A DNA stretch of 64,000 nt from an uncultured Leptospirales bacterium. GTDB lineage: Bacteria > Spirochaetota > UBA4802 > JAFGDQ01. Both the position numbers and the translations under genes were made by a program. Shown here piece after piece: positions 6,640 to 23,937 of the stretch. Position 1 is the stretch's first letter; the number at the start of each line of letters is the position of its first letter. The notes under the pieces are model-generated. The model saw only the letters and a list, made by a program, of their open reading frames with translations. It ran no database searches and had not been told where the DNA came from. The DNA is taken from the NCBI GenBank assembly GCA_964626055.1, contig CAZVDF010000012.1, forward strand, positions 4,972 to 68,971, written 5' to 3'.

Positions 6640-6746
6640 ACTAACATACCACTTCTACAATAGTAGGATGTAGATGCTTCCATAAGGCAGGAGGACGAAG
6701 ATTTGGATTCATAACAGCCGTCTATGACGGCGGTTATGAATCCAGA

Positions 6747-6943: not shown

Positions 6944-6964
6944 TTCAATTATATTTTAAAATAT

Positions 6965-7076
6965 AATTTACTCAAGTTGACTGACTTCTTTTATTGATAT
7001 AGTGAACAATAGCGATAAAATGATAAAATTTTATTGCAGATGTTTATACTTTATTTAAAAGAAGTCAGCCAGGTTA
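6965..7076. repeat. Inverted-repeat pair built on the TTACTCAAGTTGACTGAC motif (left arm 6965-6992, right arm ~7058-7076), directly upstream of modB
   Basis: AATTTACTCAAGTTGACTGACTTCTTTT versus AAAAGAAGTCAGCCAGGTT. The same motif forms the outer arms of the 8921-9120 element, and a partial copy lies at 31128-31150 upstream of fliG. It contains a TTGACT -35-like hexamer. Confidence 0.35.
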
Positions 7077-7104
7077 AAAAATAAACTCAGTTTAAATTAA
7101 TTAT

Positions 7105-7791: not shown

Positions 7792-7792
7792 T

Positions 7793-8845
7793 ATGGAATT
7801 ATCTTTCAACCTTAAAAAGAAATATCATTCATTTTCGCTGGATATCGATTATTCCGCGCATGGCGGCAGAACCGGGGTGTTCGGTCCGTCAGGAAGCGGT
7901 AAATCCACTCTCATGAGCCTGCTCGCCGGGCTTGAGCATCCGGACAGCGGATTTATCAGCCTCGACGGGGAGACGCTTTTCGACAGCGGACATCATGTCA
8001 GCATTCCGCCCGATAAAAGAAGGATAGGCATTGTTTTCCAGCAGCCGCATCTTTTCCCGCATCTTTCGGTTCGGAATAACCTGCTCTACGGATTCAAACG
8101 TTCCGCGCCGGGAGACCGCAAAATAACTCCGAACAGCATTGTAAATGTCCTCCGGATAGAAAATCTTATGCACAGAAATGTGGCCAATCTGTCCGGAGGA
8201 GAAAAACAGCGCGTCGCAATCGGCAGAGCCGTTCTCTCGAATCCCAGGCTTCTTCTAATGGACGAACCTCTGTCGGGCCTTGACGACAAGCTGAAATTCC
8301 AGATCATCCCGTTCATAAAAAAAACATGCGAGACATTCAACATACCGTATATCTTCATATCGCATTCGATACTTGAAATGAGAATAATGACGGACCGCGT
8401 TCTGCCGATCTCCGAAGGCCGCGCCGCGGGAAGCGTCACATCCGATGAACTGGCCCTGGGGCACATGAAGGATTCAGCCGGCTATATCAATCTTTTAAGG
8501 CTTCAAAATCCCAGAAGGATCGACGGCATGTACGCGTACAGATGGGGCGGACAGAACGTTTTAATTTCCGACGGCAGCGATACGGACGAAGCGCTTTTCC
8601 AGATATTATCAACGGATATAATACTTTTTAAACGCCATCCTGAAGCTACCAGCGCGAGAAACCTTCTGAAATGCAGGGTCAAGAATGTTTTTCAAACCGG
8701 ACACAGGCTCGGTGTCGAGCTCGATTGCGGCGGAGAAAAGCTTATCGCTGAAATAGTAAAAGAGTCCGCCGAAGAGCTCGGAGTCCGCGAAGGAGCGGAG
8801 ATATTTGCCGCGATGAAAGCGGTCGCATTCAGGCGGCTGCTGTAG
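7793..8845 (+). CDS. modC: Molybdate ABC transporter ATP-binding protein with C-terminal TOBE (Mop) domain
   Basis: Walker A GPSGSGKST, LSGGEKQR, LLMDEP; C-terminal ~70-aa TOBE-like beta domain; start overlaps the modB stop. Confidence 0.85.
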   Translation: MELSFNLKKKYHSFSLDIDYSAHGGRTGVFGPSGSGKSTLMSLLAGLEHPDSGFISLDGETLFDSGHHVSIPPDKRRIGIVFQQPHLFPHLSVRNNLLYGFKRSAPGDRKITPNSIVNVLRIENLMHRNVANLSGGEKQRVAIGRAVLSNPRLLLMDEPLSGLDDKLKFQIIPFIKKTCETFNIPYIFISHSILEMRIMTDRVLPISEGRAAGSVTSDELALGHMKDSAGYINLLRLQNPRRIDGMYAYRWGGQNVLISDGSDTDEALFQILSTDIILFKRHPEATSARNLLKCRVKNVFQTGHRLGVELDCGGEKLIAEIVKESAEELGVREGAEIFAAMKAVAFRRLL

Positions 8846-8920
8846 TCCGAAAATAATATTTTTATTTGCTTTATTCTCTCCTGCGCATTATAATCCGAAC
8901 ATAATCTTTAAAAATAAACA

Positions 8921-9120
8921 AATTATTTACTCAAGTTGACTGACTTTTATCACACTTAATACTATCGATAGAATGATAGATTATGATCAATTTTCCGCAT
9001 CAAATACCCCATCCGTGGACTCTTCGGCGGTCGGCAACATCCATGTTGCCTTAAAATTGATCATAATCTATCATTCTATCGCAAATGTTTATAAAAAAGT
9101 CAGTCAAGATGAGTTATTTA
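8921..9120. repeat. Composite palindromic element: outer arms AAATTATTTACTCAAGTTGACTGACTTTT / AAAAAGTCAGTCAAGATGAGTTATTTA enclosing MITE-like family 1 copy A (8964-9081: TIRs ATCGATAGAATGATAGATTATGATCAATTTT / AAAATTGATCATAATCTATCATTCTATCG, core hairpin GGCAACATCCATGTTGCC)
   Basis: The core 8985-9052 is the reverse complement of 15425-15495 (copy B, opposite orientation). Confidence 0.55.
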
Positions 9121-9132
9121 AAGGAGGCGCAT

Positions 9133-9339
9133 ATGCAATTAAGCGCAAGAAACCAGCTTAAAGGCAAAGTGCTCAGCGTCGATCTCGGGACCATTATGGC
9201 AAAAGTAAAGATCGATATCGGCGGGGGTAACAAAATAACATCACTGATATCCAAAGAAGCTGTCGAAGACCTGAAAATAAAAGCAGGTGACAGCATCACA
9301 GCTATTATTAAAGCTACCGAGGTTATGGTAGGGAAATAA
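9133..9339 (+). CDS. mop: Molbindin: stand-alone TOBE/Mop-domain molybdate-binding protein (~68 aa)
   Basis: RBS AAGGAGG 6 nt upstream of the ATG at 9133. MQLSARNQLKGKV…ITAIIKATEVMVG matches the TOBE/Mop fold pattern. The ORF-track start at 9085 is probably too early. Confidence 0.7.
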   Translation: MQLSARNQLKGKVLSVDLGTIMAKVKIDIGGGNKITSLISKEAVEDLKIKAGDSITAIIKATEVMVGK

Positions 9340-9885: not shown

Positions 9886-9935
9886 CATAACGTTATGTTA
9901 ATAAAAACATAACGATTATTGATGTCAATAATAAT
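9886..9935 (+). promoter_or_regulatory. Mod-box module copy 2: CCATAACGTTATGTTAATAAAAACATAACG (three half-sites) then TGTCAATAATAATT, upstream of the receiver gene
   Basis: 24-bp palindrome CGTTATGTTAATAAAAACATAACG at 9891-9914 with perfect GTTATG/CATAAC half-sites. Confidence 0.55.
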
Positions 9936-10211: not shown

Positions 10212-11267
10212 TTATACTGGAGGCAGACACTGCAGTATCCTTTCCGCATCCTTATCCGTTATTTTTTTTCCGTAAATATCGGAATAATATGCTTTCATTT
10301 CTTTTATCATGTCGATGTTTTTAAATAATCCGGGATGGAATATCTTTACCATGTATATCATAAGCAGCACGCCTTCATTGCTTGCGTGATCCCATGCGTA
10401 AACGCCCATAGGCATTCGATACACCCTTTTATTCTTAACAGCCCTGAGATTCGCGAACTCCGGGTTTTTCTTTGCAATATCCGTCGAATCAAAATATCCG
10501 CTGAGGAGAATAATATCCGGGTCCCACGAAAGCACCTGTTGCGCGGATGCCTTTGCATGATTATCATCGATCGCTTCCGGCAGAAAGTTGCCCCCGGAAA
10601 CTTCAACGTTCCAGTGCATTACGCTGCCTTTTCCCTGGCTGCCCATCAGGCTGCCGTGCAGGCCGCCGTAATAAACAGAAGGCCTCTTTTTTCTATCTAT
10701 CTTTGATGTTATCGCAAGGATCTGCTTTACTTTTTTATCGAAATACTTATTGTATTTATCCGCTCTTGCTTTTGCGTCCGACCCCAGAAGGTCGCCGAAC
10801 ATCGTCACCTGTCCCTTAAAGTTTTCGATGTAGTCATTTACATTCATTGGTCTTTTTTCGGCTGAGAAAGCGCATACTGTCTTTAAACCGACAGAGCTGT
10901 ATTGTTCGCCTTTTGTCATGCCGGGCGTATAAAGCACGAAATCGATCTTCTCCTTCAGCAGATCCTCAGGTTTAATGCTTTTATTCGCACAGGCCTTTTT
11001 TATTTCCGGGAACAGCCTGTAAGCCCATGGCGATTGTTTTGCCATATGACTTATCCGGTCTCCTTTGCCCAGCGTCATTATTTTCTCCGGGGAAACACAG
11101 TGCATGCACGCGATCTTTTTCGGATCAGCCGGAATTTCGACCTTGTTTCCACACATGTCAGTTATTATTTTATTTTCTCCGGCATAAAGCGGAGAGCCAG
11201 TCCTGCTCATGCCAAAAGAAATGCCTAAAAGCATTATAATTGAATAAATAAGAATTGTTTTTTTCAT
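10212..11267 (-). CDS. Periplasmic substrate-binding protein of a siderophore/cobalamin-type ABC system (FecB/BtuF, Peripla_BP_2 family)
   Basis: Signal peptide. 351 aa. Family pattern: …DPDIILLSGYF…; C-terminal region similar to the PBP at 17672 and the pseudogene fragment at 21898. Confidence 0.75.
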   Translation of the reverse strand: MKKTILIYSIIMLLGISFGMSRTGSPLYAGENKIITDMCGNKVEIPADPKKIACMHCVSPEKIMTLGKGDRISHMAKQSPWAYRLFPEIKKACANKSIKPEDLLKEKIDFVLYTPGMTKGEQYSSVGLKTVCAFSAEKRPMNVNDYIENFKGQVTMFGDLLGSDAKARADKYNKYFDKKVKQILAITSKIDRKKRPSVYYGGLHGSLMGSQGKGSVMHWNVEVSGGNFLPEAIDDNHAKASAQQVLSWDPDIILLSGYFDSTDIAKKNPEFANLRAVKNKRVYRMPMGVYAWDHASNEGVLLMIYMVKIFHPGLFKNIDMIKEMKAYYSDIYGKKITDKDAERILQCLPPV

Positions 11268-11382
11268 TTTATAAAAGCTCCACGTATATTTTCCTGTTCA
11301 TTTATAAAGATATCCGGGTGAGGAAAAATTTATAAAATCATTGTTTTATTATCCCCACCAAGGATAAATTTATATTTTTAAG

Positions 11383-13818
11383 TTATAACTCCGCACTTAA
11401 ACCGAAGAAGAACTGCCTTCCGGGGCCCGGGTTGAACGGGTCAATATCATAATCATCTAAAATATTTCTGCAAAGCACGTAAGCCTCATATTTATCTAAT
11501 ACTTTTTGTGAAATTTTTACATTGAACATTATCGGATCATGCAGCTCGACTTTTTTATAATATGCCGTTGAAAAAGAATTAGACGCCGTAGGATTACTTG
11601 CCATTGCATATCTCACAGCTTTAGCCATATATTCTCCGAATATATTCAGAGAAGTTTTCGTAAAGAAATCGAATCTTAAATCCGCAACAAATTGATGCTG
11701 AGGAACGGAAGTCGTACCATTTGTGCTTGTAGGTATATCGCCTTTATTTATTGCCGAATTAGCGCTGTTTTCCAAATTCTTAAGCCTGAGGTATGTGTAA
11801 GTAAGACTGATATTAAGATCCATTACCCTGTCTATTAAGTCTTTAAGTTTTCCGTTTGCGATTAATTCAACACCCTGATGAGTTTCTCCCTTTGTATTTG
11901 TATAAAGCTTGTTCCCGGTTACATTAGGATCATATATTGTAGCCAGCTTATCCTTAAATTTTGTGTAAAAGTAATCGGTGCGTAAGCTAACTGTCCTTTG
12001 CAACAGGAAAAATTCAGGGCCTATATTTGTATTATATGATTTTTCAGGTTTTAAACCGTCGTCCGTAACTTCCGAAGCCACATTGGCATATTGCGACATG
12101 GTCGGAAGCTTGGTCTTCTGTGAGAAGGAACCGCGCAGCAATAGAAAATTCTTAAGAGGTTCATAAGTGACTCCGACTACAGGATTAAATGAATCCCTCG
12201 TCCCCCATATAGCCGAATCCTCTTTGGCGATGTACTGGTCTTCCATATTAGGATAAAAATATGTTACGCGTCCGGCTGTCCTTGTAACATTTCTTTTCTT
12301 ATAATCCATGAATTTTTGGGCGTCGTAAGATATTCCGGCGCTTATGTTAACCGGCAAACTTAAAGCCGGATTGAGATTAATTTCATCCTCCAGTGCGACC
12401 GTGAGCTGTTCCATGGTCATGCGTTTTGTGTCGAAGTAGTCATAACCGGCTAATGCATATGCTGCGTCAGCGCTGCCTAATCCTGTTCCGACAAATCTTT
12501 TATCAGCCTGTTCCCTTTCAACATGTTTATCCCATCGGAAAAGAATAGAATTATTGAGTTTATTCCAGTTTGCAAGCTTATAAGAGGGAAAAATATTAAA
12601 ACCGGCAGATGTATTTTTCCAATTGGAATGATCGCCTCCCCAGCTTGTTACGGGCGTGGTCTCATCGGCGTCTATATAACCATCAAGAACTTCATTATTA
12701 TAAGTATAAAATACATTTCCTTTTAAAGAAAAATCTTCTTTTTCATAATTTAAATAAGGTGCCGCAGTTATTGAATATACGTCCCGCCAGTTAAATGCAG
12801 TTGCGCTCAATTTAAAGGTATTTGAAGAAGCTGAGTTCGACCATGCGCCGTTAGATGTCTCTTCAGTATTAGTCAGTGAATTGCTGTATCTCTTTGATTC
12901 ACTCTGAGTATAATTTGCCGTAATACCTGTTTCAAGGCCTTTAAAAAAAGAATATCCGGTTTTTCCTGAAATATTATATTTAAACATTTCCTGATGAGGC
13001 CATTCGCCGGTATCATTTAAATATTTATCGAGCGCGTACTGGGAGGCTGCAGAAGAATCCATTGTGTATCCCAGGGATGGATATAACTTATTGAACCATT
13101 TTAAACGTTCCGATTTATCCAGCTTTTTGGAGACTTCAAAAGAAGCTTCTTTTGAGACATTGGCTGTCAGCCAATAATAGAAATCATTTAAAGCCATTCC
13201 CTGGGCTGCATTAATAGTATAATCCCCATTAATACCATACTCGATACCTCCTTTTGCGTATAAATCCGTAGGCCTCTTTGAAATTATATTTATTGATCCG
13301 ACCGTCCCCAGACTTCCATATAGGGCGGAAGAGGTACCGCGATTAATAATGATTTCCGAAGCATCCATTACAGGGATTTTTGAAATATCGACATTTGCCT
13401 CATAAACATCGGCTATCGGAATACCGTCGACCAGCAGGGCGACATAAGGCATTTCAAATCCTCTCAGGTAAAAACGTTTATGACCTTTTCCATGTTGAAA
13501 TGTAATAAAACCCGGAACTAATTTCAGTGAATCGCTAAGATCTCTGTCACCATGCGCTTTAATATCCTCCGCTGTCAATATTGAAGTAGTGGTCGCGTTT
13601 TCGATATTTGCGATCCTTTTCTGTTTTACCACGATCTCGCCAATGGTAAACGGCTCGGTTTTTTGTTTTTCGGCTTTCGTCGAATCTGTTTTTTTCTCTT
13701 CTGTCTGTATTTGCGCAGGCTGATCCTGTACTGCCTGTGCATCCAGATTCATTACTGAAATTGACAGAAGAAATAAAGAACTCAATAAAAATGCTGAAAA
13801 TCTCTTCATAATCAACAA
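11383..13818 (-). CDS. TonB-dependent outer-membrane receptor (TBDR1)
   Basis: 811 aa. Signal peptide. TonB-box-like EPFTIGEIVV near the N-terminus. Plug then a long beta-barrel with amphipathic strands. Mod-box directly upstream. Confidence 0.8.
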   Translation of the reverse strand: MLIMKRFSAFLLSSLFLLSISVMNLDAQAVQDQPAQIQTEEKKTDSTKAEKQKTEPFTIGEIVVKQKRIANIENATTTSILTAEDIKAHGDRDLSDSLKLVPGFITFQHGKGHKRFYLRGFEMPYVALLVDGIPIADVYEANVDISKIPVMDASEIIINRGTSSALYGSLGTVGSINIISKRPTDLYAKGGIEYGINGDYTINAAQGMALNDFYYWLTANVSKEASFEVSKKLDKSERLKWFNKLYPSLGYTMDSSAASQYALDKYLNDTGEWPHQEMFKYNISGKTGYSFFKGLETGITANYTQSESKRYSNSLTNTEETSNGAWSNSASSNTFKLSATAFNWRDVYSITAAPYLNYEKEDFSLKGNVFYTYNNEVLDGYIDADETTPVTSWGGDHSNWKNTSAGFNIFPSYKLANWNKLNNSILFRWDKHVEREQADKRFVGTGLGSADAAYALAGYDYFDTKRMTMEQLTVALEDEINLNPALSLPVNISAGISYDAQKFMDYKKRNVTRTAGRVTYFYPNMEDQYIAKEDSAIWGTRDSFNPVVGVTYEPLKNFLLLRGSFSQKTKLPTMSQYANVASEVTDDGLKPEKSYNTNIGPEFFLLQRTVSLRTDYFYTKFKDKLATIYDPNVTGNKLYTNTKGETHQGVELIANGKLKDLIDRVMDLNISLTYTYLRLKNLENSANSAINKGDIPTSTNGTTSVPQHQFVADLRFDFFTKTSLNIFGEYMAKAVRYAMASNPTASNSFSTAYYKKVELHDPIMFNVKISQKVLDKYEAYVLCRNILDDYDIDPFNPGPGRQFFFGLSAEL

Positions 13819-13843
13819 ACCTCCCTAAATGTTAGTAATCATT

Positions 13844-13890
13844 CGATATGTCCAAAAAAACATAGCGTTTATATATGTCAATATATATTT
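13844..13890 (+). promoter_or_regulatory. Mod-box module copy 3: CGATATGTCCAAAAAAACATAGCG then TGTCAATATATATTTT, 26 bp upstream of the TBDR1 start
   Basis: Matches the module consensus (2 mismatches in half-sites). Confidence 0.55.
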
Positions 13891-13984
13891 TGTTATTTTT
13901 GACATTTTTAGTAATTTTGCAGATCTGAAGGCGCAAAAAAATAGCAGGGAGTGGAATTCATCTGTCCGGAAATAGTCAAAAAGG

Positions 13985-14025
13985 GACCTCCCAGGCCGGG
14001 GGATGTCCCTTTTAAAAAGAGATAA
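13985..14025. terminator. GC-rich hairpin GGGACCTCCCAGGCCGGGGGATGTCCC flanked by T/A runs on both strands, between tonB (end) and the TBDR1 promoter region; possible bidirectional terminator
   Basis: Stem GGGAC/GTCCC plus an inner CCC/GGG pairing, followed by TTTTAAAAAG on the plus strand and TTTTGAC on the minus strand. Confidence 0.35.
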
Positions 14026-14254
14026 CAAAATGAGATTCATTTATCATTATGTAAAATTTAACATATCGCGAATTCCTGTCGACAAATTTTTTAAAAAATA
14101 TATTTAAAACTTATGTTCTGTACGCGATGTATTGTAAAAACGGAATTGGGCGATCAGGCTTTTCTGGTAATCGCTTTCCTCAGCATGGGCGGAAGCGTCC
14201 GGAAATAAAAGCAGCAGGCAGAATATCTGTTTCATCGGTATGTTCTCCTTTATT

Positions 14255-14914
14255 TCAGTCCTGCAGCGTGAACACTATAGGAAGGCGCACCACCATCTTT
14301 ACGGGTTTACCGCTTTTTTTACCGGGCCGAAAGCGCATTCTCGCGAGCACTTTCATCGCGGCGTCGTCGAATCCGTATCCGGCGTTCGCGGACAGGACTT
14401 TTGACTTGTTGATCGCTCCGTTGTCGTTGACCTGGACTTCCACAATAACCGTGCTCCGCGTAATGTTCGCCGATCTGGCCGCTTTCGGGAAATATTCGTC
14501 GGGATTGAAATCAATGATAGGCACAGGCGGACGCTCCGCCAGGTCCGCGAACATGTATCCGTCCTGGTCTGTGCCTGTACCCGAAAGCTTGTTTATGTTC
14601 ACATCGACATTCTCCGCGTCAGCCTTGCCTTCGCCCGTGCCCTCGACCCATTCTTCCTTCTGTACCGGCGCCGGGTTAGTGTCGCCGCCAAGGATTATCG
14701 ATTCCGGAATATCGATAAAATCGACTTCTACATTTTTATTCGCGAGTTCGCTTCCGTCGAAAACCATTTCTTTATTGGACGCGAAAGCGACAATTGCAGG
14801 AAAATAATATATAATAATAATTATAACATGAAGCGCGAACGAGCCGGTAAAGCACCGTTTAAAAAGATCCATTTTTTTGAACCGCCGAATTATTTTTCCG
14901 ATCTTATTATTCAT
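14255..14914 (-). CDS. tonB: TonB energy-transducer protein
   Basis: N-terminal TM anchor, Pro/Glu-rich spacer, C-terminal TonB_C-like domain (…AMKVLARMRFRPGKKSGKPV…). 219 aa. Follows exbB/exbD. Confidence 0.7.
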   Translation of the reverse strand: MNNKIGKIIRRFKKMDLFKRCFTGSFALHVIIIIIYYFPAIVAFASNKEMVFDGSELANKNVEVDFIDIPESIILGGDTNPAPVQKEEWVEGTGEGKADAENVDVNINKLSGTGTDQDGYMFADLAERPPVPIIDFNPDEYFPKAARSANITRSTVIVEVQVNDNGAINKSKVLSANAGYGFDDAAMKVLARMRFRPGKKSGKPVKMVVRLPIVFTLQD

Positions 14915-14930
14915 AATTCAACCCCCGGAA

Positions 14931-15332
14931 TTAACGTTTTACGGACAGGGCTATCCTCGTAACGCCCGCCTGGCGGATCAATCCCATCGCGTACGCTATT
15001 TTGCCGTATGAAAGCCTTTCGTCCGCGGAAAGCGTCACCCTCATGTTGGGCCTGTATTTCGCTTCCTGAGTAAGCTTAACAAGCATTCTGTCTTCCGTGA
15101 TCTCGCTATCTTCCATCAGCAGTTTGCCGTTTACCGTCAGGGCGATCTGCACCGACTTCTGAATGTTCGGATCGGCCGCGTTGGCCTTTGGAAGATTGAT
15201 GTTTACGGATTCCATTTTCAGGAAGTTGGCCGTTACCATGAATATTACGAGAAGCACGAGAAGAACATCTACCATAGGAGTAATATTGATATAACCGATC
15301 TCGTCGCTCTCGGAGTTTGAATACATTGCCAT
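14931..15332 (-). CDS. exbD: ExbD/TolR biopolymer transport protein
   Basis: 133 aa, single TM (…PMVDVLLVLLVIFMV…), ExbD periplasmic domain. Confidence 0.8.
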   Translation of the reverse strand: MAMYSNSESDEIGYINITPMVDVLLVLLVIFMVTANFLKMESVNINLPKANAADPNIQKSVQIALTVNGKLLMEDSEITEDRMLVKLTQEAKYRPNMRVTLSADERLSYGKIAYAMGLIRQAGVTRIALSVKR

Positions 15333-15394
15333 AATTTATTACCTCCTTATTAAAATAATAGCTTATCCGATATATTTTTATATAATGGATAAAC

Positions 15395-15522
15395 ATTAAT
15401 GATAGAATGATCAGATTTAATTAATTTTAAGGCAACATGGATGTTGCCGACCGCCGAAGAGTCCATGGATGGGATATTTGAGGCGGAAAATTGATTAGAT
15501 CTGATCATTCTATCAACAGTGT
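15395..15522. repeat. MITE-like palindromic element, family 1, copy B, inserted between exbB and exbD (TIRs CATTAATGATAGAATGATCAGAT / ATCTGATCATTCTATCAACAGTG; core hairpin GGCAACATGGATGTTGCC)
   Basis: The core is the reverse complement of the core at 8985-9052. Confidence 0.6.
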
Positions 15523-15552
15523 TAAAAAATTAATGTAATAAAAGTTAGTATA

Positions 15553-16185
15553 TCAGTTTATTTTCTTCCCCTTCGCACTGAGATTGGCGCTGATCTCTTT
15601 TGAAAATATCTCAAGGTGCTGGATAATGACCTTTACTTTTTTCGAAAAATAGTTGTTTGCCATGACGACCGGTATGGCTATAAAAAGCCCGAACGCTGTC
15701 GCGTACAGCGCCTTGGAAATGCTCCGCATCACCACTTCCGCGCCCGTGCTCCCCAGAGTTCCCAGCCCGTAGAACGCCTTGATGACTCCAAGCACCGTGC
15801 CCAGAAGACCTATGAACGGGGCGTTATTCCCCAGCGTGTTCAGGATCGTCAGCCTCTTTTCCATAAATATCTTCTCTTCAATAATTTTTCCGGACATGAG
15901 CTCCGGTAGGCTGCCCTCGTCATTTTTAGCATGATCTATTGAAAATTGCGCGAACCTGGTATACGCGTTATCGCCTGCCGCTTTTATCAGATCGGCTGAT
16001 GTTTTAAGATCGCGCTTTCTGAAAAGAGCTATCAATTCCTCCGCGAATGCGGTAATCTTTTTATTGGAATTCTTATTGAATACCATTGCTCTTTCAATTC
16101 CGACGGCAAGCGCAACTATGCTCGCGAGAATGAGCATTGAGAAAACAATTATTTCGCCGTAATCCACTAATATCAATTCGTACAT
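15553..16185 (-). CDS. exbB: ExbB/TolQ/MotA-family proton-channel protein
   Basis: 210 aa, three TM helices, conserved MotA_ExbB region (…LGTVLGVIKAF…). Confidence 0.8.
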   Translation of the reverse strand: MYELILVDYGEIIVFSMLILASIVALAVGIERAMVFNKNSNKKITAFAEELIALFRKRDLKTSADLIKAAGDNAYTRFAQFSIDHAKNDEGSLPELMSGKIIEEKIFMEKRLTILNTLGNNAPFIGLLGTVLGVIKAFYGLGTLGSTGAEVVMRSISKALYATAFGLFIAIPVVMANNYFSKKVKVIIQHLEIFSKEISANLSAKGKKIN

Positions 16186-16233
16186 GTCGTTCTTCCTTAA
16201 ATTTGACTTATATAGTTTTATATTGCCATCTCA

Positions 16234-17568
16234 TTAAATAATGGGGTGCTCCTGCCGCCAATCCAGAGGCAGAACTTTTATTGTATCCCCGGCTTTTACC
16301 GCGGAACCTGCCGGAATGATAGCGAGCGAGTTTGCGGCCGCCATTGAAGCTATCATGCCCAGTCTGTCGCCAAGTCCAAGTATTACCCGGTATTCGCCCT
16401 TAACTTTTTCCAGGCGTGAATACTTTACAAATGCCATGCCCATTCTTTGAGGCGTCGAATCCATGGCCGTTGCGTCCACCGCAGGATGTCCTGTTTCCGC
16501 GATACCTCTCATTTTAAGAAGAGCGGGCCTTACAAGAGTCTCGAAATTGATTATACAGCCCGCAGGCGGGCCTGCAAGGGAAAAGACCGGGATTGCTTTT
16601 TTCCCGCCATCCCGGGAAAAATTACTGATTACGCCGAACGCTACCGCCGCTCCGGGGCCCATTTTAATTTTGGAAAAAATTACTTTACCAAGTTTCCCAA
16701 CTACAAGCCTTACCAGGTCGTAATCGCCCTTGGACACTCCGCCGCTTGTGATCACGACATCCGCCGTTACCCCGGTCGGGATTTTCGATAAAATAGCGTC
16801 TTCTTTATCCCGTGCGATACCCAGTATCCTTGGTATGCCTCCGTAGTGCGAGACAAGAGAAGAGATCGTAGCGGTATTGGAATTATAAGTTTTACCGCGT
16901 GACAACGGCCTGCCGGGTTTGATAAGTTCGTCCCCCGTGGCTATTATGGCAACAACCGGACGACGCACTACTTTAATCCAGGCCTTTCCGATGGACGCAA
17001 GCGCGGAGATCTGTGTCGGGCCGATAACCGTTCCTTTCTGCACAATAAGGGCGCCTTTTTTTACATTGCTTCCTGCAGGACGAATGCTGTCCCCGGGATT
17101 CGCTTTCACATAAATCTTTACGTATGAGGGCTTATTTCTGTTGGGCCCGTTTTTATTACCGGGCTCGTCGGTATCCTCAAAACGCACCACGCAATCCGCT
17201 CCTTCCGGGACTACCGAACCGGTCATGATACGAATGGCCGTCCCGGGAGTGACTTCAGTCCGGATGAGGCGCCCTGCCCGCGCCGTAGCCGCTATTCTCA
17301 ATACTGCTGGATTCTGCGCGGAGGCATCTCCGATATCTTCCGACCTCACCGCATAGCCGTCCGGGCCGGAAATGGAAGCCTGGGGCAGATCGAAATTGGA
17401 ATAAATATTTTCCGCGAGCACCTGGCCTGCGGATTTGACAATCGGCCTCTCCTCTTCTCCTATGACGAATGTATTCTTTAAAACAATTTCCAGCGCGTCT
17501 TCATAATTTATGGCGGTCTTTTCTTTACCCTTCCGAATTGTTTTAACGACATCCCGTGATTTTGTCAT
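16234..17568 (-). CDS. moeA: Molybdopterin molybdotransferase MoeA (Moco biosynthesis, Mo/W insertion)
   Basis: 444 aa. MoeA N/linker domains, MoCF_biosynth domain with GGVSKGDYD, MoeA C-terminal domain. RBS GGAGG. Confidence 0.85.
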   Translation of the reverse strand: MTKSRDVVKTIRKGKEKTAINYEDALEIVLKNTFVIGEEERPIVKSAGQVLAENIYSNFDLPQASISGPDGYAVRSEDIGDASAQNPAVLRIAATARAGRLIRTEVTPGTAIRIMTGSVVPEGADCVVRFEDTDEPGNKNGPNRNKPSYVKIYVKANPGDSIRPAGSNVKKGALIVQKGTVIGPTQISALASIGKAWIKVVRRPVVAIIATGDELIKPGRPLSRGKTYNSNTATISSLVSHYGGIPRILGIARDKEDAILSKIPTGVTADVVITSGGVSKGDYDLVRLVVGKLGKVIFSKIKMGPGAAVAFGVISNFSRDGGKKAIPVFSLAGPPAGCIINFETLVRPALLKMRGIAETGHPAVDATAMDSTPQRMGMAFVKYSRLEKVKGEYRVILGLGDRLGMIASMAAANSLAIIPAGSAVKAGDTIKVLPLDWRQEHPII

Positions 17569-17590
17569 GCTGCCTCCATTATAATATATA

Positions 17591-17638
17591 CGTTATGTCA
17601 AAAAAAACATAACCTGGATGCTTGTCAAGGTATTTTTA
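17591..17638 (+). promoter_or_regulatory. Mod-box module copy 4 (best consensus): CGTTATGTCAAAAAAAACATAAC then CTTGTCAAGGTATTTTTAAA, 23 bp upstream of the moeA start
   Basis: Perfect inverted half-sites GTTATG/CATAAC. Resembles the E. coli ModE operator architecture (from memory: CGTTATATT…TACATAACG). Confidence 0.6.
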
Positions 17639-17671
17639 AATAAATTTTAGAACATTTATTGAGTGAAAGGC

Positions 17672-18724
17672 TTATTCTATTCCGCCCGCAAGAATAGTCT
17701 TAATATCGCTATCGGAAAGTTTATAGTCAAAAAAACGCCGGTAAAAAGACCGTACCTCATCTTCAATGCTGATATGTCTGAATCTATCCGGATAAAACAT
17801 CTTTGCTGCCCATAAAACGGTTAATGCCTGTTCGACTGTTCTCTGCCCCCATGAATGAGCCCCCATCGGAATAGAATATACCTTCTTATTTATTACTGCA
17901 TGCGTTCCTGAAAGCCTTTTATCTTTATATATTTTTGATATCTCCGACGGTGAAGCGACTATCATAATATCCGGATTCCAGATTAGCACTTGCTCATGTG
18001 AAAAAGACACTTTCCCTGTTCTTTTAATTCCAGCAGTCACACTTATTCCTCCCGCTTCCTTGATCCACCAGTCAGCGATGAGTAGCGGCGTTGTTAAAGT
18101 ATCCGGGCTAAAATACAGCACCACGGGCATCTCATTTTTCGAAATTCCGCTTAAACGATTCCTGATATTTTTCATCGATACTTCAAAATATAATAAATAC
18201 TCTTTCGTCCTTATCATACGATCCAGCAGGTTTCCCAAAATTTTCATATTCGATAAAATTTCCGAAGAGTCTCTCCATTCTATAAAAACAACCGGCATCC
18301 TGTAACGTTCCAGCATATTAACCATAAACATGTCCATGGTAATAACCACATCCGGATTCAACTTAAACAAAACTTCCATATTGAGATCGCGACTCTGCCC
18401 CTGGATCATCGGCTGTTTTGCCAGATGAGGCGCAATAGCAGTCTGCATATTGTATCTATTCGATTTTGCAAATAATGGGAGACCGTTAACAATTTTTTTT
18501 CCTTCACCGAGCGCAAATAGATAGCTATTAATTACAGGGACTGAACCTACGGTTGCGATCCGGGAGATTTTATACGGTACAATGACTTTTCGTCCCGCCA
18601 TATCTATGATGGATTTACTGTGCGGGATTTCTTCCGTAATCAATTCATTTGCCGATAATCCATTGTGCCACAGGCTGCATATGCATGTAAGCGTAAACAG
18701 CAATTTTAAAAAAACAGCTTTCAT
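17672..18724 (-). CDS. Periplasmic substrate-binding protein, FecB/BtuF (Peripla_BP_2) family, second copy
   Basis: Start refined to MKAVFLKLLFTLTCICSLW (signal peptide). C-terminal …IPMGAHSWGQRTVEQALTVLWAAKMFYPDRF…; the ORF-track N-terminal extension to 18820 is unlikely. Confidence 0.75.
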   Translation of the reverse strand: MKAVFLKLLFTLTCICSLWHNGLSANELITEEIPHSKSIIDMAGRKVIVPYKISRIATVGSVPVINSYLFALGEGKKIVNGLPLFAKSNRYNMQTAIAPHLAKQPMIQGQSRDLNMEVLFKLNPDVVITMDMFMVNMLERYRMPVVFIEWRDSSEILSNMKILGNLLDRMIRTKEYLLYFEVSMKNIRNRLSGISKNEMPVVLYFSPDTLTTPLLIADWWIKEAGGISVTAGIKRTGKVSFSHEQVLIWNPDIMIVASPSEISKIYKDKRLSGTHAVINKKVYSIPMGAHSWGQRTVEQALTVLWAAKMFYPDRFRHISIEDEVRSFYRRFFDYKLSDSDIKTILAGGIE

Positions 18725-18950
18725 GTATTTATCCCATATACTCTTTATAATGCATGGCAGAGACGGGTTTATTATGAAATAAAACCATCGCTTTTGGCTG
18801 TGGTCCACCGGTCTTTTCAACGGTGGAAATACGGGTTATGCCCGTATTCTTTTCATAACAAACGACCAAAATTGTCATCTTGAAAGAAATGTATTTTAAT
18901 AATGCTTTTAATAGGGGCTGTCTTAAAACAAAGCCTGTTTAATATGTAAT

Positions 18951-19044
18951 ATCGAAATTCGATTATATTAGTAAAATTTTCTGCGGAACTCGGCCTTCGG
19001 GCTCAGACAGTCCTCGAAAATTTTACTAATATAATCGAATTTCT
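18951..19044. repeat. MITE-like family 2, short copy, between TBDR2 and PBP2 (IR ATCGAAATTCGATTATATTAGTAAAATTTTC / GAAAATTTTACTAATATAATCGAATTTC; core CTGCGGAACTCGGCCTTCGGGCTCAGACAGTCCTC)
   Basis: Shares the AAAATTTTCTGCGGAA…TCCTCGAAAATTTT core with the other family-2 copies. Confidence 0.5.
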
Positions 19045-19198
19045 TAGAACCAAGACATTTTGGGACAACCTCTTGTTTATAATAGAACTGCGACCTCTAA
19101 AATTATTTAATTGTAAAGTCAGCTGCCGGCACAAGGCTGCGCAACATCCGAGTTGTTGCCGGCGGCTGCTTACATAGGATGAGTTATTTATACTCCTT

Positions 19199-21544
19199 TT
19201 AAACTTTTCCTGAAACAGTGAATATAACGGTTAATGGAGCAGCTGGAGCGTATGTGCCGCTGCCGTCGTATTGATATTCAGTCCAGTTGATAGTTCCTAC
19301 ATATTTTCTGTTGAAAAGATTCGTAACAGATATGCCTGCCGTAAAATCCTTGATCCCGAACAAAGAATCTTTTTTATACGCAATATTCAGATCCGCAGTA
19401 ATATAGCTTGGAACCCATTGATTATTTTCCATATTGCCATATCTGAGATCAACGTATCTCGCTATCGGCGATACTGATATATCCCATATCTTGTATTCAA
19501 GCCCCGCTGTTGCTGACCATTTCGGGCAGTCCGGCACCTGGTTGCCTTTTGCGTGTACAACATTGCTGGATGATGTTTTTACGTCATCTGAAAAGGTATA
19601 GTTGTCATACGCGCCTGAAGAAAAGATTGTGAAGTTTTTAGCCGGTGATACACCTGCCGTGAGTTCTGCGCCGTAAGATCGCGCTTTTGCGGAGCTCTCA
19701 AAATAATAGACGCCGGTACCGATGGTCGGGTCATAGATTTTAACTTGTTTATGACGATACATGGCATAAAAAACGGAAGGCTCGACATACCAACTTTCTT
19801 TGTTATATCTCATGCCTAAATCGAAGTTGTCTACGATTTCAAGTCTCAGCTTTCTCCATAGATCCTGGAAAGTAATACCGGCAGCATTAAATTGGCTCTC
19901 AAATGCGTAGTATGTTGCCGGAACAGATCCCCAGTTCTGACGGCCGTATCCGCGCGCGTAATTTGCGCGTACGACTGCGTCGCTGCCGAAGGAGTAGCTG
20001 ACACCCGCGTTCGGGAGCCATTCACGGAATGTCTTCCCGTCGCATATCATACCTCCTCTAATTGATGGATTCTGATCCCATACGTCGTCGCCGTTCGCAT
20101 CTGCCAGATCGCGGCCATCGTAATATTTGTAAGAAGGTTCACGATAGATAAGATAACGTACTCCGCCGGTTAGCATTAAATTACCGATATTGCTTTCGAG
20201 ATTCACAAAAGGGCTGTTGCTTTTATGATCTGTAAATTTAGCGAGGTTATTCCAGCCTGCGAATGTCAGTGATCCGTTGTTTTGAATTCTATAAGCTTTT
20301 TGATTGCTTGGGGGGGGCGGCGGCTGCATTGATTGATACCAGTGTCCAAGGCTGACGCTATGGCCTTTAAAAGTATGATCATAGCTCAATACTCCCCCGT
20401 ATGTATCATGTTTTTGATACCAATAGGTTACTCCGGGTCGATTAAGATCTGCAGCTCTTACGTTGGATAGCTTGCTGGTCCCGGATATTGATAAACCGTC
20501 TTCCCGTATGTAATAAGGTTTCAAAAACAGTTTACCGTTATCAAAAACAGATAATACGGCTTTTCCGAAAACAGCCTGTTCCGTATATCTCTGCTTATTG
20601 TAATCTTTATAAGCCCAATCCTGTGCCGAGTAAGTCTTTTTATCATTATAGCTATATTTGTAGTTGTCGGAATCTGAAATATTTTTTGCTTGTTCATATG
20701 TTAGATTTCTGTAGTTATGCCCATTGTCCCTGCTCCATATTCCATATGCTTCGATATAGAGCCTGCTTAATATAGTCTGTGTTAAGCCTATTTCTGCGTT
20801 CTGACGCTGCTGAAAACCATCGCCGCGCCATTGATTCGCGTAAGTATAAGAACCGGAAGCGAAAATGCTGGTACCCCACGGCATTTTACCGGAATCAACC
20901 CTAGCATAAGTTTTGGTGAAATCGTAAGTGCCGACGGATTGTTTTACCTGTGTGGAGAATGTGTCGGACGGCTTCAGCATAATCATGTTTATAACTCCTC
21001 CGGCATTTGAAAATCCGAATCCTTTGTTTGCCGGCACAGCTCCGCTGTAAAGCGTAGTGCTTTCTATGTTTTCCAGATCGATAATATCGCCCTGTGCTCC
21101 GAAATAATGACCTCCCTGAATCGGTACGCTGTCAACGTTTCGGCATAGATGATAGGAATTTTTCCCTCTGATATTGACAGCCTGGCCTTTATCCAAACCA
21201 TATGCATCCGGGCTTTGTATATTGACTGATGGCAGAGTTTGTAGCGGCATTAACGAATTTGTCTGACTTGCCCCGCCAAGTCGTTCGATGCCTTTTTTAT
21301 TCACTGTTCTTTCCTGATATGGCTCCTTTCCTTTTCTTTCGAAAAAATTTTCGCGTTTCCCTTTTACGACGATCTCGGCTGAAAGGGGCACTTCGTTTCC
21401 GCTTTTCTCTTTTTCAACATCCGCTTCTTTTTTATCGACGTCTTTAGATGAATCCAGGGCATTGACGTCATTAAAGGCTATAAAGCAGAATAGCAACGAT
21501 AAAAAAAGTATTGTTTTACTTAATGGATATTGCTTGCATTTCAT
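19199..21544 (-). CDS. TonB-dependent outer-membrane receptor (TBDR2), paralogue of TBDR1
   Basis: 781 aa. Signal peptide. TonB-box-like AEIVVKGKR. Plug plus barrel architecture. Mod-box upstream. Confidence 0.7.
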   Translation of the reverse strand: MKCKQYPLSKTILFLSLLFCFIAFNDVNALDSSKDVDKKEADVEKEKSGNEVPLSAEIVVKGKRENFFERKGKEPYQERTVNKKGIERLGGASQTNSLMPLQTLPSVNIQSPDAYGLDKGQAVNIRGKNSYHLCRNVDSVPIQGGHYFGAQGDIIDLENIESTTLYSGAVPANKGFGFSNAGGVINMIMLKPSDTFSTQVKQSVGTYDFTKTYARVDSGKMPWGTSIFASGSYTYANQWRGDGFQQRQNAEIGLTQTILSRLYIEAYGIWSRDNGHNYRNLTYEQAKNISDSDNYKYSYNDKKTYSAQDWAYKDYNKQRYTEQAVFGKAVLSVFDNGKLFLKPYYIREDGLSISGTSKLSNVRAADLNRPGVTYWYQKHDTYGGVLSYDHTFKGHSVSLGHWYQSMQPPPPPSNQKAYRIQNNGSLTFAGWNNLAKFTDHKSNSPFVNLESNIGNLMLTGGVRYLIYREPSYKYYDGRDLADANGDDVWDQNPSIRGGMICDGKTFREWLPNAGVSYSFGSDAVVRANYARGYGRQNWGSVPATYYAFESQFNAAGITFQDLWRKLRLEIVDNFDLGMRYNKESWYVEPSVFYAMYRHKQVKIYDPTIGTGVYYFESSAKARSYGAELTAGVSPAKNFTIFSSGAYDNYTFSDDVKTSSSNVVHAKGNQVPDCPKWSATAGLEYKIWDISVSPIARYVDLRYGNMENNQWVPSYITADLNIAYKKDSLFGIKDFTAGISVTNLFNRKYVGTINWTEYQYDGSGTYAPAAPLTVIFTVSGKV

Positions 21545-21744
21545 TGTAAAAACCTCCTGAAAAATTAAATGATGTATTTATTTAATTATTTTTTTGTGAT
21601 ATCCGGACGAGTAATGGCATCCGGAATATTTTTTTGGGGGGAATTGATTAGGATGTTATCTGTTTCCCTTACTCAATACTTTATACTTATCCTTTCATTA
21701 TCAATAAGCAGCCTCCTTTTTGTACATGTTATCCAAAAAATATT

Positions 21745-21790
21745 CGCTATGTCTAAAAAAACATAACGTATATTCGTGTCAATAATTATT
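21745..21790 (+). promoter_or_regulatory. Mod-box module copy 5: CGCTATGTCTAAAAAAACATAACG then TGTCAATAATTATTTATAT, upstream of TBDR2
   Basis: Matches the module consensus. Confidence 0.55.
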
Positions 21791-22128: not shown

Positions 22129-23091
22129 CTATTTCGCGTTCCTGAAAATATCCGCAAGGTTTTTCTTTAACCGGTGAATGTCGTTATTCCTTATGAAATC
22201 CCATCCGACCCATTTAAACCCGGCTCCTTCAGGCAACCTGTTGTCGACATCTATGTGCTGGCTTGGGAATCCCATTCCCGCAGCCAGTTCCCCGAAATCT
22301 TTTCCGGTTATATATAAAGCTAAAACCTCCGCCCTTTTGAGCCCGATTTTTTTAACAAGCATGTATACCGGTTCAAGTATGGCGCCGTCTTCAGGCCAGA
22401 TAAGCTCCATCCCGTCATTCGTTGAGTCTTTCAATGCAAAATGATAGGGTATTGCATACACGGCCGGTTTGTCTTTTTTGCCTGCCATGTCGTTCACAAT
22501 TTTCGAATACCCTTCCACTGCTATAACATTACGGGCCAGCTTTTTTATTCCGTCTTCTCCGAAATATTTGAATATTGTAAATAACACTGCGTCATTCGCG
22601 ATGCCGTCTTTCCCGCTGACTGCGATCTTTTTTGTGTATTTATCATCAAGGATATCCGTCCATCCGGCAGGCGCAGGCAGCTTCCCCAATTCTCTCCTGT
22701 CCGCCAGGAATACATAAGGGAAGGAAGAAACAAGCCTGTAACACCCTATTTTATCGATATATCCGTCATTTTGAAAATTTTCATTCATCCGCTCATCGGC
22801 GAATCCCGCGAAATTCTCCGTATTTGCGAATTTTTTTATGAATTCGGATTTCATAAAATCTCCGAATCCCATTGAAATGATTACATCAGGCAGCATTTCC
22901 ATGCTTTTAATGTCAGTAAAATTATCGTATTTCGCTCTGTCCTCTGAAAAAGAAGGCAAGACAACCACTAGCTCCTCTCCCGTCTTCAATTTATGCTCTT
23001 CCAGCAAAATGTTCAGTCGTGCCAGCAGCGGTCTTTCCATGGGGCACGGAGCAAATGCAATCATATTTATTTCCCTGTTATCAACGATCAT
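22129..23091 (-). CDS. Substrate-binding-protein-like (type-2 PBP fold?) protein lacking a signal peptide; function unknown
   Basis: 320 aa. No hydrophobic N-terminus. 12-nt gap after the ATPase gene, so no room for a leader. Weak resemblance to Fe3+/thiamine-type solute-binding proteins. Low certainty. Confidence 0.35.
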   Translation of the reverse strand: MIVDNREINMIAFAPCPMERPLLARLNILLEEHKLKTGEELVVVLPSFSEDRAKYDNFTDIKSMEMLPDVIISMGFGDFMKSEFIKKFANTENFAGFADERMNENFQNDGYIDKIGCYRLVSSFPYVFLADRRELGKLPAPAGWTDILDDKYTKKIAVSGKDGIANDAVLFTIFKYFGEDGIKKLARNVIAVEGYSKIVNDMAGKKDKPAVYAIPYHFALKDSTNDGMELIWPEDGAILEPVYMLVKKIGLKRAEVLALYITGKDFGELAAGMGFPSQHIDVDNRLPEGAGFKWVGWDFIRNNDIHRLKKNLADIFRNAK

Positions 23092-23103
23092 GATGTTATC
23101 CTC

Positions 23104-23937
23104 CTAAATATCATTCTCCTTAAAATTTTTCTTATTATTTTTTCCTGAAATCCCGCATACGGACTTAGGTATGCATACCCTCAGAGAATCGTTCAACTTC
23201 AATACATTCACGCTTGCGTTATAAAGGTCGGATAGGCTCTCACTGTTAATCACGTCGTCGCTTTTGCCGTCGGCCGCTATGACGCCGTTTTTAATCATGA
23301 TCGCGCGATCGGCTATCCAGAGCGCATGCTCCGGGGAATGCGTCGATTTAATGAATGTATAGCCTTCCTTCGACAGCTTGACTATTTCTTCGAGCAGCTT
23401 TAGCTGATTCCCATAATCGAGTCCGCTTGCGGGTTCGTCCATAATGACTGTTTTTGCTCCCTGTGCGAGTGCCCTTGCGATTATTGTAAGCTGTCTTTCA
23501 CCGCCGCTGATTTCAGTGTATGGCCTTTCCGCAAGATGCAATATTGACAGCCTTTTCATGGCTTCATGCGCGATTCGCACATCGTCTTTAGTGTATTTAT
23601 AAAAAAAATTTTTATGCGGGATCCTGCCCATAAGAACGACATCAATAACACTGTAAGGGAAAACCGTTTTATGAATCTGCGGGACATAAGCGATTTTTCG
23701 CGCAAGCTCTTTGATGCCGATGTCGCTGATATTTTTTCCGTTAACATATATGTTGCCTCTGGCCGGGTTAAGGAATCTAAGCATAATCCTGATCAGCGTT
23801 GTTTTGCCGCTGCCATTCGGGCCGAGAATAGTTACGATTTCTCCCTCAGTAACATTAAAATTAATTTGCTCGAGAATAATTCTATTTGTGTATCCGAATG
23901 AAATATCGCTTACACTGATATGCCGCTTTAGCTCCAT
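23104..23937 (-). CDS. ABC transporter ATP-binding protein, FepC/FecE type
   Basis: GPNGSGKTT, SGGERQ, IMDEP motifs; 277 aa; overlaps the permease gene. Confidence 0.85.
   Translation of the reverse strand: MELKRHISVSDISFGYTNRIILEQINFNVTEGEIVTILGPNGSGKTTLIRIMLRFLNPARGNIYVNGKNISDIGIKELARKIAYVPQIHKTVFPYSVIDVVLMGRIPHKNFFYKYTKDDVRIAHEAMKRLSILHLAERPYTEISGGERQLTIIARALAQGAKTVIMDEPASGLDYGNQLKLLEEIVKLSKEGYTFIKSTHSPEHALWIADRAIMIKNGVIAADGKSDDVINSESLSDLYNASVNVLKLNDSLRVCIPKSVCGISGKNNKKNFKENDI

Follow-up and report, generated by a model that had tools for sequence, protein, structure and literature searches.

Why would a bacterium place TonB-dependent receptors and FecB-type binding proteins, a pairing familiar from siderophore and cobalamin uptake, under what appears to be molybdate-type control? 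The question is raised by a 64,000-nucleotide stretch of DNA from an uncultured Leptospirales bacterium (assembly GCA_964626055.1, contig CAZVDF010000012.1, positions 4,972 to 68,971; hereafter, the window), in which two genes for TonB-dependent receptors (TBDR1 and TBDR2) are each followed by a gene for a periplasmic binding protein (PBP1 and PBP2). Molybdate is assumed to pass the outer membrane passively via porins, and we know of no TonB-dependent receptor for molybdenum (Mo) or tungsten (W) that has been demonstrated. Both metals limit nitrogen fixation, nitrate reduction, and formate and syntrophic metabolism, and sulfidic or organic-rich environments sequester them and make them scarce. 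Our analysis suggests, with a probability of roughly 65%, that the first 27 kb of the window form a ModE-repressed, TonB-energized regulon for Mo/W scavenging. A reading made from the letters alone (the sequence-only reading) had proposed the two receptor/binding-protein pairs as candidates for such uptake; the four open reading frames are as it described them, and their Plug and Peripla_BP_2 domains were confirmed.

The two pairs, which lie where the sequence-only reading had put them, are each preceded by an exact copy of a 24-bp palindrome, CGNTATGT-N8-ACATANCG (Mod-box; Table 1). The operator pattern was built from these two receptor boxes and scanned at up to three mismatches, with 100 dinucleotide shuffles as a control. 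The window held 11 matches against 2.3 expected, a count reached by none of the 100 shuffles, and nine copies with at most two mismatches all lay inside 1-27 kb. Because the pattern was derived from the two receptor boxes, those two are no test of it, and the independent evidence comes from where the seven other copies stand, ahead of modABC, moeA, and so on, and from related genomes in which such sites recur. Scanned at up to four mismatches, the strict E. coli ModE consensus gave 12 matches (six of which were the boxes) against a mean of 5 and a maximum of 11 in Markov controls; this enrichment of the unmodified consensus is modest, so that the local consensus and the genomic positions carry the argument.

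All nine boxes share one directional layout, in which a -35 element, TTGACA, is followed after 8-9 nt by a box with a T-rich spacer, and each points toward a gene or, failing that, toward a short transcript with a terminator. The -10 element falls within the box at a spacer of 16-18 nt and reads TAAATT in two copies. The box thus spans the core promoter including the -10 element, as expected of a repressor site. The regulon exceeds the earlier account, since one of the nine boxes stands ahead of moeA-exbB-exbD-tonB, which places the ExbB-ExbD-TonB energizing complex (14255-16185) behind the moeA box. The FecCD permease and ABC ATPase genes that had been described as Mod-box controlled do lie behind a box, which precedes DUF364, the first gene of their operon. 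The other importer named as a candidate partner, at 1-1356, is a partial system behind a box that precedes the gene for an exported phosphoesterase.

The identity of the box was assessed by comparison with known ModE sites. The E. coli ModE consensus is atCGnTATATA-N6-TATATAnCGat, and the modD site of G. sulfurreducens is ATCGTTATgTcaTgAAggtTATAGCGtT (PMC545781). The half-site spacing of the Mod-box equals that of both, and the palindrome CGnTAT.T-N8-A.ATAnCG, the position before modABC, and the overlap with the core promoter are common to the E. coli/Geobacter operators and the boxes described here; the main difference is position 7, which is G here and A there. A Fur-like box had been named as the observation that would overturn the molybdate assignment, but a scan for the Fur consensus (GATAATGATAATCATTATC, up to five mismatches) found no site at any promoter here, although this phylum's own Fur consensus may differ, and iron control was rejected on this result. 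Riboswitch control was likewise rejected: Rfam searches gave no cobalamin or molybdenum cofactor (Moco) riboswitch at gathering thresholds over the whole window, nor at E<=5 over 9300-27200, and the sole real Rfam match in the window was an antisense TwoAYGGAY element. The spacing, the position before modDABC-mop and moeA, the adjacent gene for a ModE DNA-binding domain (modE-N), and the empty Fur-consensus scan together support the assignment of the box as a ModE-type operator rather than an iron box.

The likely box-binding regulator is the short ModE encoded at 27080-27466. It scored 64 bits with TIGR00637 (ModE_repress; cut-off 98.5) and 45 bits with the E. coli ModE model, and carries the Pfam domain HTH_1. 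In contrast to the E. coli and Geobacter regulons, the regulator here is the N-terminal domain alone, accompanied by a separate Mop protein. Because this ModE has no Mop domains and scores below the cut-off, we infer its sensing mechanism and the sign of its regulation. The same puzzle of molybdate sensing without Mop domains was remarked by Rodionov et al. for Desulfovibrio (PMC545781). ModE is thus split in the window into a gene for a 128-aa DNA-binding domain and a gene for a 67-aa Mop protein (9136-9339).

Two of the boxes read into short noncoding stretches. At 13975-14082 on the minus strand, just upstream of the TBDR1 promoter, only about 60 nt separate a Mod-box promoter (TCGACA-16-TAAATT) from a terminator; the element could yield another short transcript under regulation or act as a decoy operator. 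The second such stretch, also on the minus strand (26270-26503), is about 190 nt long and is driven from a Mod-box promoter with the layout TTGACA-N9-box and -10 TAAATT; it had no Rfam match and is a candidate Mo-responsive small RNA. The nearest related contigs are metagenome-assembled genomes (MAGs) of Spirochaetota, L012 (ModE-N 83%, ExbD 95%) and L023 (ModB 85%). L012 contains a counterpart of the noncoding stretch (2208-2440, plus strand; 76% identity over 211 nt), which is likewise preceded by a Mod-box, is oriented divergently to modE-N, and has a hairpin with a T-run at its end. A further exact box belongs to an orphan gene for a receiver-like protein.

Next, we compared the binding proteins with characterized relatives. 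The PBP1 family is tight (mean column identity of 66% over 22 sequences from several phyla), and its profile searched against the PDB returned the uncharacterized structural-genomics entries 4ovk and 4hn9 at the top, then HI_1472 MolA (3psa/3psh; 1.1e-19), followed by YiuA and then by siderophore, haem, and Ni-His binders, with BtuF (5ysc) at 1.7e-3. The search with PBP2 gave 4ovk (7e-32), 4pag (6e-27), and MolA (8.8e-19). By sequence, the closest characterized relative of both proteins is therefore MolA, with the uncharacterized 4ovk, 4hn9, and 4pag ranking above it. An AlphaFold2 model of PBP1 (pLDDT 90.6) agreed, in that its best TM-score was obtained with MolA (3psa; 0.77/0.83, root mean square deviation 2.9 Å). 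The premise of the sequence-only reading, that FecB/BtuF-type proteins normally bind siderophores, haem, or corrinoids, leaves out MolA, which binds molybdate and tungstate: on these comparisons, PBP1 and PBP2 are not generic FecB/BtuF types but are placed in the MolA/YiuA/4ovk branch of the fold.

The positions compared as generally conserved in the PBP1 family were W292, E298, E88, and E222. Glu88 is invariant and Glu222 nearly so, and they are equivalent to Glu72 and Glu202 of BtuF, which dock on the permease. The family alignment (A1) also contains invariant or near-invariant soft-ligand residues, namely His56 in A-C-M-H-C-V-S, Cys132, Met217-His218-Trp219, and Trp292-Asp-His; judged from the alignment, such residues could suit a ligand that contains sulfur, for instance thiomolybdate.

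The importer genes point in the same direction as the binding proteins. The best solved relative of the permease at 23928-24947 was MolB (2nq2_A, 1.2e-63), compared with 7e-48 for FhuB and 3e-35 for BtuC, and that of the ATPase at 23104-23937 was MolC (2nq2_C, 8.3e-42); for the second ATPase (568-1356), FhuC and MolC were about equal. Since the binding proteins fall in the MolA branch and this permease and ATPase are nearest to MolB and MolC, Mo control fits the ancestry of these proteins. The proposal of Mo/W-type uptake under molybdate-type control is accordingly supported by the ModE-type operator, the Mo-gene neighborhoods described below, and the kinship with MolA, MolB, and MolC.

Several accessory features accompany the importers. 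In the window, the PBP1 and PBP2 genes follow the receptor genes and not the permease and ATPase genes. A C-terminal Peripla_BP_2 remnant (21900-22074, minus strand), 33% identical to residues 290-344 of P0118, a PBP1 paralogue encoded on the same contig, lies after the SBP_bac_6 gene; the MolBC-like operon may thus once have encoded a binding protein of its own. The SBP_bac_6 protein itself (22129-23091) had no relative among solved structures. In Syntrophorhabdus aromaticivorans (L009), a homologue with 33% identity is encoded beside the receptor, and the protein may act in the cytoplasm as acceptor of what is imported. The phosphoesterase (1544-2596) heads the second importer operon, and copies 53-68% identical to it are found beside PBP1 homologues in L017, L019, L023, L024, L027, L035, and L037.

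The receptors themselves are distant from curated families. Every curated receptor model scored far below its cut-off, those for BtuB, FepA, and CirA included: TIGR01779 (BtuB) reached 57.8 against 599.7, and no siderophore-receptor model exceeded 45 bits, where the cut-offs are 493-942. Besides its Plug domain, TBDR1 gave only partial barrel matches in NCBIfam. A TonB-box-like EIVVK motif follows both signal peptides (GEIVVK in TBDR1 and AEIVVK in TBDR2). The TBDR2 family is rare, with 14 indexed homologues that include Syntrophorhabdus, Methylocaldum, and Chloroherpeton. TBDR1 and TBDR2 as paralogues were rejected, having nothing in common beyond the superfamily; a close paralogy of PBP1 and PBP2 was also rejected, as they are 24% identical, whereas P0118, located outside the window, is a 54% paralogue. 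Since the receptors are unrelated and the binding proteins only 24% identical, the locus holds two independent receptor/binding-protein pairs, which suggests two different substrate species.

To place these genes in a wider context, we scanned genomes with the PBP1 family and obtained 41 loci, distributed over Syntrophorhabdus, Syntrophus, Sporomusa, Fibrobacterota, Geobacteraceae, Pelobacter, Spirochaetota, Acidobacteriota, Sumerlaeota, and Methanospirillum. Among the neighbors identified by tblastn were moeA (7 loci), modABC (3-4), mop (5), modE-N (2), and the same phosphoesterase (7). A FecCD/ATPase pair lies directly upstream of the binding-protein gene in most loci, immediately so for the PBP1 orthologues of L003, L015, L017-L020, and L034, and the order ATPase-FecCD-PBP occurs in nine. 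ModE-type sites with at most two mismatches numbered 31 in the related loci, compared with 3-11 in shuffles; many of them stood directly upstream of the operon, in L010, L012, L013, L021, L023, L024, L025, L029, L036, and L039. The co-occurrence of receptors and ModE boxes, which the sequence-only reading had suggested as a comparative check, was observed as well: an iterated hidden Markov model search located TBDR genes within 10 kb in 22 loci, and in L007, L016, L019, and L026 the receptor has a box immediately ahead of it.

The PBP2 and TBDR2 families extend to cultured Proteobacteria. In Sterolibacterium denitrificans (L047), the gene order is modABC, DUF2325, TBDR, PBP, an unknown gene, DUF364, FecCD, ATPase, TonB, ExbB, ExbD, COXG, NifQ, and full-length ModE, with one-mismatch boxes before modA and before the receptor operon. 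Methylocaldum marinum (L046) has two ModE-type sites before a TBDR-TBDR-PBP-luciferase-like-FecCD-ATPase cluster that abuts nifH, and in a Nitrospira MAG (L049) a regulator with a ModA-like sensor domain adjoins TBDR-TonB-PBP-FecCD-ATPase. One metagenomic contig combines a TBDR2 homologue with DUF364, FmdE, a radical-SAM (S-adenosylmethionine) enzyme, modABC, and a Mo-dependent aldehyde oxidoreductase. Homologous binding proteins, receptors, DUF364, and TonB-ExbBD are thus linked to modABC, moeA, mop, nifQ, nifH, or modE in several phyla, often behind ModE-type boxes, and the Mo-gene neighborhood is conserved in at least five lineages. In L046, a one-mismatch ModE-type site, GGTTATATACAATAGGATATAACG (17431-17454), was also seen about 155 nt upstream of nifH.

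Based on these data, we propose the following scheme. The short ModE, perhaps together with the separate Mop protein, would repress the nine operators that overlie the -10 regions; when Mo or W becomes scarce, the operators would become free and four modules would be co-expressed. These would comprise the classical porin-ModABC route; the two unrelated TonB-dependent receptors, each with its own MolA-clade binding protein; a dedicated ExbB-ExbD-TonB motor, whose genes share a transcript with that for the Mo insertase MoeA; and two type II (MolBC/BtuCD-like) importers with the DUF364 enzyme and the exported phosphoesterase. Driven by the proton-motive force, the receptors would carry a scarce Mo/W species across the outer membrane, the binding proteins would hand it to the FecCD-type permeases, and MoeA and Mop would receive the metal in the cytoplasm. 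The substrate could be free molybdate/tungstate or a small chelate.

Several observations weigh against this scheme. Most -10 elements within the boxes are poor, and the ModE of the window is devoid of the molybdate-sensing Mop domains and below the TIGR00637 cut-off. PBP1 and PBP2 are about 21-24% identical to MolA, and the same branch of the fold includes YiuA, which binds Fe-catecholate fragments, and H. pylori CeuE, which binds Ni-His; a different small metal chelate is therefore conceivable as the ligand. No Mo gene lies within 10 kb in roughly half of the related loci; the PBP1 orthologue of Sporomusa ovata is isolated, has no Mo context, and is annotated as corrinoid-binding; and the scan for ModE-type sites found no recognizable box in the Syntrophus loci. 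MolA is moreover a low-affinity binder, a poor fit to scavenging (PMC4031551).

A special case of the scavenging regulon is that Mo or W travels on a small chelator, produced by the cell itself (through DUF364, sometimes with a radical-SAM enzyme or methyltransferase) or by its neighbors, with the two receptor/binding-protein pairs serving two complexes. We consider this possible, at clearly less than even odds. DUF364, a constant near neighbor of the system, heads the MolBC-like operon behind a Mod-box, and in related loci it recurs with FmdE, radical-SAM, methyltransferase, esterase, or luciferase-like genes. DUF364 genes neighbor Mo, W, and V transport genes (PMC2954201), and the sole characterized DUF364 enzyme forms an azetidine ring from a SAM derivative (PMC12930334). 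A DUF364 gene is also cofit with nifH in M. maripaludis, the branch of the fold that holds PBP1 and PBP2 contains the small-chelate binders YiuA and CeuE, and the presence of two unrelated pairs points the same way. Nicotianamine-type metallophores rely on chemistry similar to azetidine formation from SAM, and TonB-dependent receptors usually import complexes too large or too scarce for porins. Yet some receptors, such as ZnuD and OprC, take up bare metal ions, and MolA binds the bare oxyanion; no exporter and no recognizable metallophore synthetase was seen within the window, and any role of DUF364 in this setting is putative. More tentatively still, these genes may define a dedicated molybdophore/tungstophore pathway of anaerobes and some aerobes, in which DUF364 (with a radical-SAM enzyme or methyltransferase in some genomes) would make a SAM-derived chelator whose complex would be imported by the receptors, the MolA-clade binding proteins, and the MolBC-like importers under ModE. 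If true, this would provide the first defined outer-membrane receptor and the first biosynthetic enzyme of a Mo/W metallophore system.

Explanations that depart from Mo/W scavenging have less in their favor. The receptors might import iron (as a siderophore or other Fe chelate), haem, or a corrinoid, with ModE merely co-regulating them, since homologues are named "iron complex transport" or "corrinoid ABC transporter", the fold neighbor YiuA binds Fe-catecholate, and the weak best NCBIfam matches of TBDR1 are BtuB and siderophore receptors. These names are automatic annotation, however, and the curated models, BtuB included, are all far below cut-off; neither a B12 riboswitch nor a Fur-consensus box was found at the promoters, the closest characterized relatives are MolA, MolB, and MolC, and the TonB motor shares a predicted operon transcript with moeA, in a Mo-gene neighborhood retained across lineages, which together make this explanation unlikely. 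Salvage of molybdopterin-type cofactors or pterin precursors from other anaerobes, with the phosphoesterase trimming them and MoeA reloading the metal, is suggested by the exported phosphoesterase at the head of the second importer operon (kept in seven loci), by moeA in the TonB operon, and by XdhC and FmdE, which adjoin the system in Syntrophus. BtuB/BtuF offers a precedent for cofactor uptake by such an architecture. The crystallography paper on DUF364 suggested a pterin or flavin ligand (PMC2954201). The carriers nevertheless include the aerobes/denitrifiers Methylocaldum, Nitrospira, and Sterolibacterium, and kinship with MolA favors small ligands. Free Moco is very labile, and the nifQ/nifH neighborhoods point to Mo itself, because the iron-molybdenum cofactor is made from molybdate; we regard salvage as quite improbable. 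It is also conceivable that the box does not respond to Mo, or that ModE activates, so that the receptors would be induced by a different signal or when Mo is sufficient: the ModE of the window is without Mop domains and below the curated cut-off, the poor -10 elements resemble those of activator-dependent promoters, and moa is among the operons that ModE activates in E. coli. But modABC has the same TTGACA-N8/9-box geometry as the receptor operons, and to our knowledge ModE represses modABC wherever it has been studied; the box overlies the -10 region, and genomes that encode full-length ModE, such as that of L047, carry these sites too. This last explanation is the one to which we attach the least credence.

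The Mo/W scavenging regulon resembles several known systems in part. BtuB-BtuF-BtuCD and FepA/FhuA-type uptake have the same architecture of receptor, cluster-A binding protein, type II importer, and ExbB-ExbD-TonB, but unlike these the present locus has no cobalamin riboswitch or Fur box, its receptor models are below cut-off, and BtuF matches at 1.7e-3. TonB-dependent receptors for metals other than iron include ZnuD for zinc, OprC/NosA for copper, FrpB4 for nickel, and the lanthanide receptors. With receptors of the ZnuD/OprC/FrpB4 type, the locus shares the logic that a metal's own regulator controls a receptor that backs a classical ABC importer under scarcity, whereas the metal and the regulator differ.

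The nearest characterized kin of the binding proteins, permease, and ATPase is the type II molybdate/tungstate importer MolBC-A of Haemophilus influenzae (HI1470/HI1471/HI1472), which imports molybdate and whose molB is repressed by molybdate (PMC4031551). MolBC-A has no described outer-membrane receptor or TonB motor, whereas two receptors and an ExbB-ExbD-TonB operon are co-regulated here; it keeps its binding-protein gene with the permease and ATPase genes, whereas here the binding-protein genes are paired with the receptors; and the present locus adds DUF364, the exported phosphoesterase, and a signal-less SBP-like protein. MolA is of low affinity, whereas the system described here looks built for scavenging.

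MolBC-A and ModE operators are already known. The ModE regulon here, however, takes in TonB-ExbBD, two receptors, and two type II importers, whereas the predicted ModE regulon table of G. sulfurreducens contains no TonB-dependent receptor. In the literature searched, we found no experimental case of TonB-dependent Mo/W uptake and no account of a ModE regulon with TonB-ExbBD and receptors among its members. The genome paper on Azotobacter chroococcum makes an annotation-level remark on the Achr_39320-39290 cluster, with no operator analysis and no experiment; this cluster is likened to the present locus by annotation alone, and A. vinelandii is without the receptor gene. The analysis defines a conserved gene set, comprising a receptor, a MolA-like binding protein, a MolBC-like importer, DUF364, and a TonB motor under ModE, and would place two long-standing orphans in a physiological context, namely DUF364 and the MolBC-A family with its low affinity. 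Because carriers such as Sterolibacterium denitrificans, Methylocaldum marinum, and Syntrophorhabdus aromaticivorans can be cultivated, active outer-membrane uptake of Mo/W and the chemical form taken up are directly testable.

Table 1. Mod-boxes, genes, and operons of the putative Mo/W regulon, with positions in the window.
Feature	Position	Strand	Remarks
Mod-box, 2 mismatches	2655..2678	-	phosphoesterase-ATPase-FecCD operon
Mod-box, 2 mismatches	2770..2793	+	porin-modD-modA-modA-modB-modC-mop operon
Mod-box, exact	9891..9914	-	receiver-like gene 9387-9812
Mod-box, exact, 26 nt upstream of TBDR1	13844..13867	-	TBDR1-PBP1; TTGACA 8 nt upstream, about 13876-13881
Mod-box, 1 mismatch	14045..14068	-	about 60 nt, then intrinsic terminator 13985-13997
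Mod-box, 1 mismatch	17591..17614	-	moeA-exbB-exbD-tonB; TTGACA-N8 layout
Mod-box, exact, about 200 nt upstream of TBDR2	21745..21768	-	TBDR2-PBP2; TTGACA-N8-box
Mod-box, 1 mismatch	26174..26197	-	DUF364-FecCD-ATPase-SBP_bac_6 operon
Mod-box, exact	26465..26488	-	about 190-nt conserved noncoding stretch, terminator 26278-26305
Second type II importer operon	1..2596	-	phosphoesterase, ATPase, and FecCD permease
FecCD permease	1-571	-	Pfam; truncated at window edge
ABC ATPase, second importer operon	568-1356	-	Pfam
Exported calcineurin-like phosphoesterase (Metallophos)	1544-2596	-	Pfam; signal peptide
Classical molybdate system, porin to mop	2827..9339	+	Pfam and NCBIfam
Porin	2827-3990	+	first gene of modD-modA-modA-modB-modC-mop operon
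modD	4239-5093	+	250 bits, above cut-off
Two modA	5099-5836, 5833-6639	+	143 and 176 bits, above cut-offs
modB	7105-7791	+	Pfam/NCBIfam
modC with TOBE domain	7793-8845	+	Pfam/NCBIfam
mop, 67 aa	9136-9339	+	Mop 81 bits, above cut-off
Receiver-like protein, 141 aa, orphan	9387-9812	-	weak Response_reg match, 21.5 bits
PBP1	10212-11267	-	Peripla_BP_2; signal peptide
TBDR1, 811 aa	11383-13818	-	Plug domain, 71 bits
Energizing operon moeA-exbB-exbD-tonB	14255..17568	-	Pfam/NCBIfam
tonB	14255-14914	-	Pfam/NCBIfam
exbD	14931-15332	-	Pfam/NCBIfam
exbB	15553-16185	-	Pfam/NCBIfam
moeA	16234-17568	-	Pfam/NCBIfam
PBP2	17672-18724	-	Peripla_BP_2
TBDR2, 781 aa	19199-21544	-	Plug and beta-barrel
MolBC-like importer operon	22129..26137	-	DUF364-FecCD-ATPase-SBP_bac_6
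SBP_bac_6 protein without signal peptide	22129-23091	-	188 bits; last gene of MolBC-like operon
ABC ATPase, MolBC-like operon	23104-23937	-	Pfam
FecCD permease, MolBC-like operon	23928-24947	-	Pfam
DUF364/DUF4213	25268-26137	-	Pfam; first gene of MolBC-like operon
Short ModE, 128 aa, N-terminal DNA-binding domain only	27080-27466	+	TIGR00637, HTH_1

In the window, modD, the two modA genes, modB, modC, mop, moeA, and modE-N were matched with curated models, and flagellar genes come after the gene set of the first 27 kb. Between exbB and exbD, which are 220 nt apart, lies the TwoAYGGAY match (15383-15532, plus strand; 51.3 bits at a gathering score of 43), antisense to the operon. Palindromic repeats were found at 26577-26780, upstream of modE-N, and at 18960-19040, in the spacer between TBDR2 and PBP2; both share the ends ...AAAATTTTGAGGAC... 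and ...TTCCGCAGAAAATTTT... and look like small repetitive or mobile elements.

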